Positions 53,790-64,000 are shown, counted from the first letter of the stretch. The stretch is DNA of 64,000 nucleotides from an uncultured delta proteobacterium (GCA_963733195.1 CAVTCR010000060.1:64799-128798), one strand, 5' to 3'. The notes: generated from the letters alone by a model not told the origin. Numbers and translations are program-made.

Positions 53790-56700
53790 ATGCGCTGTGT
53801 AAGCTGTGGCTTCGAGAATCCCGACGGGCTCAAAGTTTTGCAATGAGTGTGGTGCCGCACTCAAAGGGCGCTGTGCTCAGTGTGGCTTTGAGAATGCGCC
53901 GCAGGCCAAGTTCTGTGGGGAATGTGGTACGACGCTCACCGGGCGAACTTCCGTTTCCAAGCTCCAACCTCCTCCAGAGCGTCCGGCTCCTGCGAGTTAC
54001 ACGCCTGCCCATCTGGCCGCACGTATTCTGTCTGAACAAGCGGCCATGGCAGCTCGTGGTCTCACCGACGGTGAGCGTAAGACGATCACCGCGCTGTTTG
54101 CCGATCTCAAAGGCTCCACGGCGCTCATCGAAGGCCTTGATCCTGAAGAGGCACAAGCGATTATTGACCCTGCCCTCCAGCTCATGATGGATGCCGTGCA
54201 TCACTACGAAGGGTATGTAGCGCAGGCGCTAGGCGATGGTATCTTTGCCTTGTTCGGTGCACCTATTGCCCACGAGGACCATCCCCAGCGCGCCCTGTAT
54301 GCCGCTCTCCGCATGCAGGAGGAGATGCGCCGCTATGCCGATACGCTGCGGCAGAAAGGGTATCCCCCGCTGCTGATGCGCGTGGGGATCAACACCGGCG
54401 AAGTGGTGGTGCGCTCCATTCGCAAAGACGATTTGCATACGGACTATGTCCCCGTAGGGCATTCCACCAACTTGGCGGCCCGCATGGAACAATTGGCGGC
54501 GCCGGGCTCCATCCTGGTGACCGAGCAAACGCAGAAACTCACGGGCGGCTACTTTGAGTTCAAGGCGCTGGGAAAGACACAGGTCAAAGGGATGGAAGAG
54601 CCGCTCAGTGTCTACGAGGTTATTGGCGCGGGGCCTTTACGCACACGGCTGCAAGTGGCCGTCAGACGGGGACTGACGCAATTCGTTGGCCGCCACCGGG
54701 AGATGGACCAACTCCATCTCGCCCTTAACCAAGCCAAGGCAGGGCATGGCCAAATCGTCGGGGTGATGGGCGAACCTGGGCTCGGGAAATCGCGCCTGTT
54801 TTACGAATTCAAGCTGCTACCTCGCAAAGCTGGCTGTCTGGTGCTGGAAGCCTACTCGGTCTCCCACGGGAAAGCGTCACCGTACCTGCCAGTCATTGAG
54901 CTGCTCAAGAGCTACTTCCAGATACAACCCCAAGATGCGGAGCGGCAGCGCAAGGAGAAGATTGCGGGGAAAGTGCTGATGCTCGACCGCAACCTCGAAG
55001 ACACGTTGCCCTACCTCTTCGCCCTGATGGGTATCGAGGACCCGACTTCCAGTCTACAGCAAATGGACCCCCAGATTCGCCGGCGGCGGACGTTTGACGC
55101 CCTCAAGAAGTTGTTCTTACGCGAGAGTCTCAATCAGCCCCTGATCCTGAACTTTGAAGACCTGCACTGGATCGACAGCGAGACGCAGGGCTTTCTCGAT
55201 ACGTTGAGTGAAAGCGTGGCCAGTGCCCGGATGCTGCTCCTGGTGAACTATCGGCCCGAGTATCGGCATGAGTGGGGAACAAAGACCTACTATACCCAAC
55301 TGCGGCTCTCTCCGCTCGGCCCAGCCGAAGCCGCAGAGCTGCTCAGCTTTTTGCTGGGGAACGACGCGAGCCTCACGGCGGTGAAGCACCTCATTCTGGA
55401 GAAGACGGAGGGAACGCCGTTCTTCATGGAAGAAGTCGTGCAGACCTTGGTGGAAGAGGGAGCAGTGACGGGTGCGCGGGGCAGCTATCACCTGGAGCGA
55501 GCGCCGGCCGCACTGCACATTTCTCCTACCGTGCACGGGGTGCTGGCGGCGCGGATTGACCGTCTCGCGCCCGAGGAGAAAGCCTTGCTGCAACAGCTGG
55601 CGATCATCGGGCGGGAGTTTCCGCTGAGTCTCGTCCGCCAGGTGGTCTCGCAGCCCGAAGAGGAGCTCTACCGCCTGCTGGCGTCGCTACAGCGCAAAGA
55701 GTTCCTGTACGAGCAGCCGGCCTTCCCGGAGGTGGAGTACATTTTCAAGCATGCGCTGACGCAGGAGGTGGCCTACGGCACAGTGCTCCAGGAGCGACGC
55801 AAAGCCTTACACGAACGCACGGCGCAGGCGATCGAGGCGCTGTATCCCGAGCGCTTAGAGGATCACTACAGCGAGCTCGCGTATCACTACAGCCGCAGTG
55901 GCAACACCTCGAAGGCGGTGGAGTATCTGCACCTTGCCGGACAACAGGCGGTGCAGCGCTCGGCGTATGCGGAAGCGATCAGTCATCTCACCACGGCCCT
56001 AGAGCTGCTCAAAACCCTGCCGGATACGCCCGAGCGCGTCCAGCAAGAACTCGCGCTGCAACTCACTCTGGGGGTGCCATTCCAGATCCTCAAGGGGCAT
56101 GCCGCACCCGAGGTGGGCGAAACCTACAACCGGGTCCTAGAGTTGTGCGGGCAGGTGGGGGAAACTGCTCACCTCTTCCCCGCGCTGTTCGGACTGTGGC
56201 GGTTTTACTTGCTGCGCCCAGACGCGCAAAAAGCGCATGAACTGGCCGAGCAGATGATGCGGCTGGCCCAGAACAGCCAAGACCCTGCACTCCTGCTCGA
56301 AGCGCATCGGGCGTTGGGAGCAAGCTTGTTCTGGCTGGGAGAATTGCGGCAAGGCCGCAGGCATCTTGAGCAAGGGATTGCGCTCTACGACATCCACAAA
56401 CACCGCTCGCATGCCTTTCTCTATGGGATTGATCCTGGGGTGTATTGCCTGTGCTTTGCAGGCTGGAATCTCTGGTGTCTGGGCTATCCGGAGCAGGCAC
56501 TGAAGAACACGCAGGACGCATTGCACTTGGCCCACGAGTTAGCGCATCCTCATACTTTGGCTTTTGCCCTAAACATTACTGCGTATGTTCCATCAGTTTC
56601 GTCACGAAGAGACAGCCGTGCGAGAACAGGCAGAAGCACTACTCACGCTTTCGACCGAGCATGGGTTTGCCTATCGAGCGGCGTGGGCGACTCATCTTGC

Positions 56701-61293: not shown

Positions 61294-64000
61294 CGCTGAT
61301 CAAGATCCTGGATCAGGTACGGGTGCTACTGCAAGCAAAAGGGCGTGTCACTTATCGCCTGCTCCAAGTGCAGTTTCAGCTGTCCGATGATGCCCTTGCC
61401 GCCCTCAAGGAAGAGCTCATCGAAAGCGAACAGGTCGCCATCGATAAAGACGGGAAAGTACTGGTATGGATCGGAACGACAAGCGGGAGAACGAATACGC
61501 GGATGGAAAGTACTCACTTCCCTCAGTCTTCAGTCCCTCGACCTCCCGAGGCCGAACGGCGCCAATTGACGGTGATGTTCTGTGATCTGGTGGGCTCCAC
61601 GCGCTCTCCGCCAACTCGACCCGGAAGAGTACCGGGAAGTCGTGCGCGCCTATCAGCAGGCAAGTGCCGCCGTGATTGACCGTTTTGACGGCCATATTGC
61701 GCAGTATCTCGGCGATGGGCTGCTCGTCTACTTTGGTTATCCCACCGCGCATGAGGATGATGCGGTGCGCGCCGTGCGGGCGGGTTTAGGATTATCGCGG
61801 CCGTGCATGCCCTAAGACGCGGCCTCACCCATCGCTCCAGGTCCGCATCGGCATTCACACCGGGTTAGTCGTCGTTGGCGAAATAGGAGGAGGCAGCCGC
61901 CAGGAGCAGTTAGCTTTGGGCGAGACGCCTAACATCGCGGCCCGTATCCAGGGACAAGCTGCACCTGATGAAGTGGTGATCAGCGCAGCTACCTATCGCT
62001 TGGTCGAGGGCTTATTTGATGTGAAGATCGCGGGCAACCAGAACTCAAAGGCGATAGCGACTCCGCTGACACTCTATCGTGTGATCAAAGAGGGCGAAGC
62101 CCAGAGTCGATTTGAGGTGGTCGTACGCAAAGGGCTCACCCCCTGTGGGGCGAGAACACGAATATGGGCTATTACGAGAACGCTGGGCGCGGGTGAAAGA
62201 CGGGGCAGGACAGGTCGTGTTGCTCAGCGGCGAGCCAGGCATTGGCAAATCACGCTTAGTGGAAGCGCTCAAAGACCGTCGAGCCGAGGGCGCACGCTGT
62301 CTGGAGTTGCGTTGTTCGCCCTATGCGCAGAACAGTGCGTTGCACCCGATCATTGAGTCATCTGCAACGGCGGCTGCAATTTCAGCGAGAAGATCTCCCG
62401 GACGAAACTAGAGAAGCTCCAGCATATGCTGAGTCCGGTCGCTTTCCCGCAGGCGGAAACGATTTCCCTCCTGGCGGCATTGCTGTCGTTACCCCATCCC
62501 GCAAGAGTTACCCGCCTTTTCACTCTCAGCCCCCAGAAGCGGAAAGAGAAAACACAGGAAGCCCTCGTGGCCTGGCTGTGTGGAGGAAGCGGAGCAACAG
62601 GCGGTGGTCTGCGCCTGGGAAGATCTGCACTGGGCTGATCCCTCAACGTTCGAATTCCTCACGCTCTTGCTGGAGCAAGTGCCCACGACGCGGCTGCTAG
62701 CGGTGCTGGCGTTTCGACCCGAGTTTATGCCGCCCTGGGGTACCGTTCCTATCTCAGCCAGCTAACGCTCAGTCGGTTGGACGGAGCCAGTAGAGACGAT
62801 GGTGGAGAGAGTGACCGGCGGCAAACGCTGCGCAGAGGTAGTGCGACAGATTGTGACAAGACCGATGGGGTGCCGCTGTTTGTGGAAGAGTTGACCAAGA
62901 TAGTGGTGGAGTGAGCTTGGTCAGAAGAAGCAGGAGCATTATGAGTTAACGGGTCCGCCTCCCCACTCGCGATTCCTCGACCTTGCAAGACTCGCTGATG
63001 GCGCGACTTGATCGCTTAGGGATCCGCAAAGAGATCGCCCAACTGGGCGCAACCATCGGGCGCGAATTTACTTATGAGTTACTCCAGGCCGTCTCCCCAA
63101 TAGACGAGGGGACGCTTCAGCAGGGTTGCGGCAGTTAGTGGACGCCGAGCTGCTCTATCAGAGTGGGCTTCCACCCCGGGCTACGTATCTCTTCAAACAT
63201 GCACTGGTCAGGACACGGCCTACCAGTCGTTGCTGAAGAGCGGCGCCAGCAGTTCCATCAGGAGATGGCCCAGGTGCTTGAGGAGCGGTTTCCTGAGACA
63301 AGAGACCGAGCCTGAAGAGTTGGTACATCATTACACCGAAGCTGGCCTTATTCGGCCATTCCGTATTGGCAGCGGGCGGGAGAGCGCGCCACCCAGCGCT
63401 CGGCCAATGCGGAAGCGATCAGTCACCTCACGAAGGGGCTGGAAGTCGTCCCAACTCTGCCAGATACTCCAGATCGTGTCCAGCAAGAACTAACCCTGCA
63501 GCTCGCCCTGAATGATGCCTTGGTCGCTGTCAAAGGCTACACGGCCCCAGAGGTGGAGAAAACCGTAACTTGATCCCCGGGAACTGTGCCAGCAATTTGG
63601 GGGAGATGCCCCAGCTCTTCTCCGTACTGAATAGACTGTTTTTGTTTTATTTTAATAGGCGAGAGTTACAGACGGCACTTGAGCTGGCGGAGCAGATGAT
63701 GCGCCTTGCCCAGAGCGTCCAAGACCAGTATCTCCTTTCGATAGCTCACACGGGACTAGGGGTGACATTGTACTACCTTGGAGAGTTGCTTTCGGCGCGA
63801 GCAAACTTGGAGCAGGCGCTTGCTCTGTATGACCCCCAGACGCACCCTCGCCCCCGCCGTTGGTACGGCTGACCCGAGGGTGGATTGCCTCTCCTTTGCA
63901 TCTTGGACCCTGTGGCGTCTTGGCTATCCAGAGCAGGCCCTGAAGCGGAGCCATGAGGCACTGACCTTAGCCGCAGGGGCTGTCTCACCCTTTTAGTCTG
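61290..64000 (+). CDS. Class III cyclase + STAND ATPase + TPR protein (copy 3); heavily frameshifted, runs off window
   Basis: [58 protein letters not shown] overlap with copy 2. Confidence 0.85.

Follow-up and report, generated by a model that had tools for sequence, protein, structure and literature searches.

The sequence analysed here (the window) is the final 64 kb of a 128.8-kb contig from a metagenome-assembled genome (MAG) of the Binatia (6.95 Mb in 87 contigs, with 93% completeness and 4.5% contamination), and its 3′ end is occupied by a tandem array of three large genes, each combining a class III nucleotide cyclase, a STAND NTPase and a tetratricopeptide repeat (TPR) sensor. A preliminary description of this region had reported three homologous, same-strand genes of approximately 3.5 kb, and these are indeed present. 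Copy 1 (53790-57303, + strand, ~1,170 codons) encodes a double zinc ribbon followed by the cyclase, a STAND NTPase (AAA_16) and the TPR sensor. Copy 2 (57828-61293, + strand, ~1,155 codons) has a short N-terminal helical domain ahead of the cyclase, STAND NTPase and TPR regions, and copy 3 (61290-64000, + strand), a member of the copy 2 subfamily, is cut by the contig end at ~80% of its length. Both of the ATGA overlaps described for the region were found, one at 57300 between copy 1 and a kinase open reading frame (ORF) and the other at 61290 between copies 2 and 3, as were the GExGxGKS and EDLHW motifs, with Walker A and EDLHW kept in all three copies. Following frame correction, copies 2 and 3 share 66% identity, and copy 1 is 44% and 40% identical to copies 2 and 3, respectively. 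None of the three genes is an uninterrupted ORF, as copies 1, 2 and 3 carry 4, 18 and 19 single-base frame changes when compared with intact relatives; no in-frame stop was found in any of them. The region thus contains three cyclase-STAND-TPR paralogues of a widespread cytosolic family, the architecture of which is already known.

Copy 1 starts at ATG 53790, with GGAG upstream, and ends at TGA 57301-57303, which overlaps the ATG at 57300. Its open frame of 979 codons (from 53806) is parted from the start codon by a one-base insertion near 53826, which all 7 of the 7 reference proteins tested confirm, and three further one-base insertions (~56590, 56693 and 57033) interrupt the C-terminal TPR part. 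Alignment with the intact ORF of the relative L034 gives 73% identity and places three frame changes in the C-terminal region. A Pfam search with the 979-residue frame identified a DZR zinc ribbon (37 bits), Guanylate_cyc (78.3 bits, cut-off 21.9) and AAA_16 (72 bits, cut-off 32.6), together with weak TPR matches. The cyclase catalytic domain is located at 54079-54612 (+ strand; Guanylate_cyc, residues 92-269 of the 53806 frame), followed by the P-loop NTPase core at 54679-55236 (+ strand; AAA_16, residues 292-477), with GEPGLGKS as Walker A and ...FEDLHW as Walker B. The TPR/α-solenoid sensor (55870-57300, + strand), assigned on the basis of an all-helical model, weak Pfam TPR matches and the reading of the frames, ends in the family's WFTEGFDTKDLQEAK tail.

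When aligned with the intact 1,143-residue ORF of L011, from a genome of the same family, copy 2 shows 67% identity over 1,119 residues, interrupted by its 18 frame changes, and has its stop codon at 61291-61293. The Pfam cyclase match of copy 2 is divided between two frames, the first fragment alone scoring 50.7 bits for Guanylate_cyc. Copy 3 is 65% identical to its intact relative, and the alignment ends at approximately residue 927 of 1143, where the contig stops. At the N-terminus of both copies (57828-58020 and 61290-61480), a helical domain of ~60 residues (...SYRALKRRF..DDEYVEDLKAELI...) replaces the zinc ribbon of copy 1; its Pfam matches are faint and winged-helix-like (PCI, E 0.11; FeoC, E 0.054). 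On another contig of this genome, at G000 C5:46264-53395 (− strand), two tandem genes of the copy 2/3 type are fully unbroken, with 0 frame changes, and could stand as intact examples of the family here.

The cyclase motifs FxDLxGST, GDG and (S/T)(T/P)N(L/I)AAR occur in all three copies. The copy 1 domain aligns best with the cyclase of PDB 2w01 (E 6e-31), with both metal-binding Asp residues and the transition-state Asn and Arg kept, and the Guanylate_cyc domain (PF00211) scores 77-85 bits in intact relatives, for which Pfam reports Guanylate_cyc, AAA_16 and TPR. A LuxR-type helix-turn-helix (HTH) domain at the C-terminus was not detected by Pfam in the window ORFs, in full-length L034 and L011 or in the C-terminal fragment of L117; these proteins end in TPR.

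For the NTPase and TPR regions of copy 1 (residues 280-925 of the 53806 frame), an alignment of 46 sequences yielded an AlphaFold2 model with a pLDDT of 88 and a pTM of 0.73 that is all-helical from approximately residue 383 of the modelled piece. A Foldseek search with this model returned the solved STAND-TPR protein 6mfv (6e-15), Apaf-1 (5e-10), Avs3 (2e-8) and MalT (1e-6), with CED-4 also among the matches. The predicted structure has a nucleotide-binding oligomerisation domain (NOD), followed by helical and winged-helix domains (HD and WHD) and a repeat sensor, and is in the model a STAND fold. Column identity across the family decreases from the cyclase (0.70) through NOD (0.66) and HD/WHD (0.62) to TPR (0.49), with the N-terminal add-on at 0.29. 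The TPR is the least conserved folded region, and by this comparison of sequences the family combines a conserved output with a variable input.

The array is not exceptional, as the family forms 19 tandem clusters in this genome, this one included. Each cluster has two to five genes, and together they take in 43 of the 152 loci that measure 1.5 kb or more. A tblastn search with 78 intact relatives covered 525 kb of the genome, and the genome-wide count of paralogues that had been proposed resolved 167 loci by aligner, 129 of them at least 2.5 kb long and 10 of these unbroken. We place the size of the family in this genome at ~130-170 loci, or 6.8% of the genome. The cyclase domain is included in 94 of the 129 long loci, and of ~141 cyclase-domain loci genome-wide, 107 are within the family. 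The G+C content of the family DNA is 58.0%, against 53.5% for the rest of the genome. Of 21 genomes of the class that were searched, 20 contain homologues, and most genomes of the same family have many copies; full-length homologues of 57-60% identity occur in isolates of Cupriavidus, Ralstonia, Paraburkholderia, Pandoraea and Burkholderia. An orthologous array was not found in the two same-genus genomes, where synteny ends before copy 1; in one of these, contig G002:C88 aligns with window 48893-53661 and then continues with different genes. The upstream neighbours in the window encode an Nramp transporter, an M50 peptidase, ScpA/ScpB and a pseudouridine synthase.

Frame changes were counted against intact relatives using a purpose-written, frameshift-aware protein-to-DNA aligner; the homologues in relatives have open frames of ~1,050-1,240 codons that are mostly stop-free. 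Over the 167 family loci (476 kb), the aligner reported 1,735 frame changes (1,046 of the one-base-insertion kind and 689 others) versus 41 in-frame stops. Applied to 76 intact homologues of other genomes (mean identity 65%), the same aligner found 1 stop and no more than 21 frame changes over 230 kb, a background of ~0.09 frame changes per kb, compared with 3.65 per kb in the family loci of this genome. Neutral decay with so many indels is expected to leave hundreds of nonsense codons. Furthermore, break density is 4.5 per kb in loci with at least 70% identity to relatives versus 2.3 per kb in those below 55%; the best-conserved loci are therefore the most broken, contrary to the prediction from decay.

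Similar damage is seen in genes of other kinds. The rpoB gene is spread over three frames and rpoC is in at least four pieces (G000 C71:133111-141235), while one of three uvrA copies is split. With essential genes such as rpoB and rpoC broken, the consensus of this assembly is unreliable across the whole genome. In the window, uvrB (40292-42448, − strand) contains one-base insertions at 41072, 41331 and 41521, within 450 nt; these are insertions relative to both same-genus orthologues (90-94% protein identity), and the error is of the type seen in the cyclase genes. Likewise, hpaB (4-hydroxyphenylacetate 3-hydroxylase; 44273-45818, − strand) has a frame change near 44540 that leaves its C-terminal part in another frame. 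Damage that is confined to indels, the retention of motifs and the frame-splitting of rpoB, rpoC and uvrB therefore point to consensus errors as opposed to pseudogenes. Most probably, the frameshifts in all three array genes are indel errors of the assembly consensus, concentrated in the paralogue family, and the real genes are intact. The advice of the preliminary description to polish the assembly was in this respect sound.

Two observations weigh against consensus error as the explanation. Break density in the family is ~15 times that of the ordinary genes of the window, with 41 events in ~9.7 kb of array versus ~12 credible events in ~50 kb of ordinary genes (the latter counted by hand over the first 53.7 kb, dropping events seen with a single reference or lying in the first codons of stop-to-stop queries). 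We attribute this excess to probable cross-mapping, during consensus, of reads from many paralogues and strains, which would fit with 19 of the 174 contig ends lying within family loci that make up 6.8% of the DNA. In addition, the 41 in-frame stops exceed the calibration, from which ~2 would be expected, and a few family loci may be real pseudogenes. If the three genes and most of the family were genuine pseudogenes, forming a graveyard of decaying paralogues, both observations would be explained, as would the scarcity of unbroken long loci (just 10 of 129) and a real-looking 329-nt deletion in the zeta-like kinase gene that follows copy 1. We nevertheless consider this very improbable: the damage consists nearly entirely of single-base indels, catalytic motifs are kept alongside 65-73% identity to intact relatives, it is the best-conserved loci that are most broken, and the essential rpoB and rpoC have breaks of this kind as well. 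Labelling these genes as pseudogenes, or building evolutionary accounts on their decay, would be wrong. More generally, where most members of a large gene family in a MAG look like pseudogenes, the cause can be a consensus artefact. It is recognised by damage limited to indels, by breaks in rpoB and rpoC, and by orthologues that are intact in relatives.

Proximity to contig ends was considered as the main cause of the breaks and rejected, as density drops only weakly with distance from the end (Spearman rho -0.18, p 0.02). The homopolymer context at 12 indel sites was mixed. Among six public sequencing runs, the best share of words was 0.07, so that none contains this organism, and contigs from four of the runs represent related genes, which are short and mostly less than 95% alike. 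These differ from the window by single bases at frame changes (for example at 56693, 58487 and 59219), which is compatible with either error or mutation. Two further loci of the window deserve mention. A gene at 16141-17187 (− strand), which has 332-348 codons in both same-genus genomes, contains four frame changes and two or three stops and overlaps the start of a + strand gene at 16986; this may reflect a cluster of errors or genuine loss of the gene. An ORF with a transposase DNA-binding domain (Tnp_DNA_bind; 42429-43586, − strand), which lies between the PCMT gene and the start of uvrB, seems C-terminally truncated and overlaps the region of the uvrB start codon.

Copies 1 and 2 are separated by what had been described as a toxin-antitoxin (TA)-like cassette with a zeta-like kinase at 57300. 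A P-loop ORF does start at this position (AAA_33, E 1e-4); however, its Zeta_toxin score of 15.8-17.9 bits lies below the cut-off of 22.3, and only the 62 N-terminal codons and a displaced, out-of-frame C-terminal end remain, on either side of a deletion junction at 57481/57482. The extent of this remnant of a zeta-toxin-family P-loop kinase (57300-57561, + strand) was established by DNA alignment with the metagenome contig L117, which is 85-91% identical to window 57046-57861. L117 encodes an intact kinase of 197 codons, of which the window lacks the 329 nt mentioned above, and has the gene order STAND-TPR gene end, ATGA-joined kinase, small gene. The overlap with L117 is limited to window 57046-57861 and does not reach the frame changes of copy 1. 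The small gene of the window (57545-57760, + strand) is intact and encodes a conserved protein of 71 residues (EGTPID...PIVVWQDG), the partner of the kinase and a candidate antitoxin.

Searches with the small protein returned 12 homologous protein clusters (E 1e-9 to 1e-40) and 87 encoding stretches in metagenome contigs, 80 of which were kept; no Pfam, PADLOC or NCBIfam model matched it. The small ORF was recognised in 71 loci, and in 33 of these a P-loop ORF abuts or overlaps it on its upstream side. The relatives of the kinase score 28-52 bits for Zeta_toxin, and the four neighbouring kinases of ~200 residues that were scanned (193-202 residues) score 36-52 bits, all above the cut-off. Alignments of kinase relatives that extend past residue 62 into the small gene were forced by the aligner and have been excluded. 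The frequent abutment, taken together with the Zeta_toxin matches, therefore indicates a real two-gene module of kinase followed by small protein. The small protein family (~60-70 residues) is a candidate new antitoxin family with a toxin-first arrangement.

The cassette had also been described as embedded in the array; by its distribution, it does not belong to the receptor system. A cyclase-STAND-TPR family gene lies upstream of the small gene in 3 of the 80 loci, one of which is without the kinase altogether, and among the four closest loci the kinase has been lost or deleted in two while the small gene is retained. No match to the kinase N-terminus was found at E<=0.01 elsewhere in the genome or beside the other family loci examined, and the small gene gave chance-level matches only (E>=0.08) over the same range. 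The kinase/small-gene module is an independent passenger that is decaying on the toxin side, accompanies the family only in the nearest relatives and is not part of the sensor system. It would represent a separate, decaying TA-like module that landed between copies 1 and 2 in this lineage.

We propose that the three paralogues carry out ligand-gated, oligomerisation-activated cyclic nucleotide (cNMP) signalling, with a role that is environmental or physiological rather than dedicated to immunity, and assign this reading a probability of roughly 0.6. Each protein would act as a signal-transduction ATPase, with a ligand binding to the variable TPR solenoid. Ligand binding and nucleotide exchange on the STAND module would lead to oligomerisation, which in turn would dimerise the N-terminal class III cyclase domains, as catalysis requires. 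The preliminary description had likewise suggested that a cyclic nucleotide is made on ligand-induced oligomerisation, and both the architecture and the conservation of motifs are consistent with a cyclase sensor switched on by NTP-dependent oligomerisation. The output would be a cyclic purine nucleotide, probably cAMP, possibly together with cGMP. Approximately 100 such sensors in the genome may converge on about a dozen cNMP-binding proteins.

Several points count against this proposal. The position that specifies the purine is occupied by Lys in adenylyl cyclases and by Glu in guanylyl cyclases. All three copies have a Gln at this position, and the cyclic nucleotide product is therefore uncertain. 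In the preprint 10.1101/2024.03.06.583649, a mycobacterial cyclase-ATPase group is reported to have a Gln-Asn pair and dual activity. For this subfamily, cyclase activity, ligand gating and oligomerisation are all predictions from sequence and fold. Finally, a large and variable STAND repertoire, tandem arrays and a TA-like neighbour would also be expected of an immune repertoire, and the survey of flanking genes that bears on this question is weak evidence, as its ORF calls were crude, its models came from a single library of 2023 and its raw counts were compared with no background statistic.

The immune interpretation was the one favoured by the preliminary description, which likened the genes to Avs, to bacterial nucleotide-binding leucine-rich repeat (NLR) proteins and to Pycsar. 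In such an NLR-like repertoire, the paralogues would differ in the phage or foreign protein that their TPR sensors recognise; each would oligomerise, and the resulting cyclic nucleotide would trigger shared effectors. The STAND fold shared with Avs3 and Apaf-1, the ~130-170 loci with variable sensors and conserved output, the common occurrence of tandem arrays and the TA-like module inside the array all agree with this, and PADLOC models of PycC match the cyclase domain of the window proteins (E 1e-15 to 3e-19). However, the PycC matches are no better than the generic Pfam cyclase match, and no PADLOC defence model covers the NTPase or TPR region, where only weak hits to TPR (E 0.0037) and SngB (E 0.0067) were obtained. 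An adjacent cNMP-binding effector is also lacking: the genome contains 14 matches to PF00027 (cNMP_binding), none of which is on the window contig, and no such ORF is present in the 53.7-64 kb region. The window flanks are housekeeping genes, and the TA-like module accompanies the family in just the 3 of 80 loci noted above. In the neighbourhoods of 70 homologous loci, a test for enrichment in defence genes having been suggested, 133 of the 150 nearest ORFs have no PADLOC match at E<=1e-5, and the 17 that do are scattered, mostly generic and form no complete system (three HNH/PtuB-like, one Fic/PDC-S04, three patatin-like, three oxidoreductases, two methyltransferase-like and five singletons). 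The few HNH/PtuB-like and Fic-like ORFs among these speak for defence. Small HNH-nuclease ORFs of this kind (PtuB-like, E 1e-7 to 3e-12) adjoin family genes at L036:2813-3226, L027:2329-2841 and L027:6485-6913, and no PtuA partner was seen beside those of L036 and L027. The comparison of ~100 cyclase sensors with about a dozen cNMP-binding receptors makes a second-messenger funnel likelier than self-contained immune modules, and we regard an NLR-like immune repertoire as unlikely. General signalling, offered as a fallback in the preliminary description, is the better-supported half of its proposal.

A related and rather speculative idea, to which we give little credence, is that the ~100 Binatia cyclase-STAND-TPR genes form a germline-encoded, NLR-like surveillance repertoire, each member sensing a different foreign or self-derived protein, with a cyclic nucleotide relaying all of these inputs to a small set of common cNMP-binding effectors. 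If true, this would be a 'many sensors, one messenger' network for immunity or kin recognition, distinct from both Avs, where the sensor is fused to a killing effector, and Pycsar, where the cyclase stands alone. The genes might instead be regulators tied to natural-product pathways, such as those of thiazole/oxazole-modified microcins (TOMM) and other ribosomally synthesised and post-translationally modified peptides (RiPP), or to other pathways, with the cyclase serving mainly as a dimerisation or nucleotide-binding module and not as a source of messenger. This is suggested by the non-canonical specificity residue and by the matches to TIGR03903, which reach 649.4 bits for the L011 ORF (copy 2/3 type; positions 262-1266 of the 1267 in the model), 446.9 bits for the L034 ORF and 431.4 bits over positions 281-1121 for copy 1. 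All of these scores, however, fall below the curated cut-off of 705.75 bits, and the defining N-terminal kinase is absent, with no Pkinase match in Pfam and model positions 1 to ~260 unmatched. Moreover, none of the window neighbours was recognised as a RiPP gene, and the conservation of all catalytic residues would favour an active enzyme. We consider such a role for the genes improbable and retain ligand-gated cNMP signalling as the preferred reading.

The commitment of ~7% of a genome to 130-170 STAND-TPR sensors, ~100 of them with a cyclase output and served by about a dozen cNMP-binding receptors, represents an extreme case of second-messenger signalling. Within the open-access library searched, we found no paper on this cyclase expansion in Binatota or Binatia. 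The cultured homologues in Cupriavidus and Paraburkholderia, at 57-60% identity, offer an experimental entry to the family.

A comparison with known systems places the array among several that share some of its features. Avs1-5, bNACHT and 6mfv have in common with it a tripartite logic of effector, NOD-HD-WHD and repeat sensor, and the fold of the model matches 6mfv, Apaf-1, CED-4 and Avs3. In contrast to Avs and bNACHT, where nucleases, proteases or NADases serve as effectors, the effector is a cyclase. None of the STAND models of PADLOC matched in sequence, and no defence-island context was recognised in the window flanks or among the 150 ORFs surveyed. With PycC of Pycsar, the window genes have a class III cyclase fold in common; whereas PycC is a stand-alone protein with an adjacent effector, the cyclase is here fused to STAND-TPR and no effector gene adjoins it. 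The cNMP cyclases of other conflict systems, which are not of the cyclase-STAND-TPR type, are treated in the accessible part of PMC7159879, and the corresponding part of PMC13581612 makes no mention of cyclases. For the intervening module, the relatives of the 57300 gene resemble zeta/epsilon-type TA systems (Zeta_toxin, AAA_33) in being P-loop kinases tightly coupled to a small partner gene. Unlike in zeta/epsilon systems, the kinase comes first and the small gene second, and the partner belongs to no known family.

Among named families, TIGR03903 (TOMM system kinase/cyclase fusion protein) comes closest, and the body of cyclase, ATPase and TPR aligns to it end to end; the window genes differ from it in being without an N-terminal Ser/Thr kinase domain and in scoring under the cut-off. 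Mycobacterial cyclases of the Rv0386/Rv1358/Rv2488c type, likened here by description, share the order of N-terminal class III cyclase, STAND (LAL/MalT-like) ATPase and TPR. Gln at the purine-specifying position is a further feature in common with this mycobacterial group, for which a Gln-Asn pair is reported in 10.1101/2024.03.06.583649. The window genes are distinguished from this type by ending without a LuxR-type HTH and by their other N-terminal add-ons, the double zinc ribbon in copy 1 and the short helical domain in copies 2 and 3. Given that the cyclase-ATPase-TPR architecture has long been known from both the Rv0386 type and TIGR03903, 'uncharacterised', as the array was first called, is an overstatement. 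The three genes are added members of a known and widespread architecture, within a remarkably large lineage-specific expansion.

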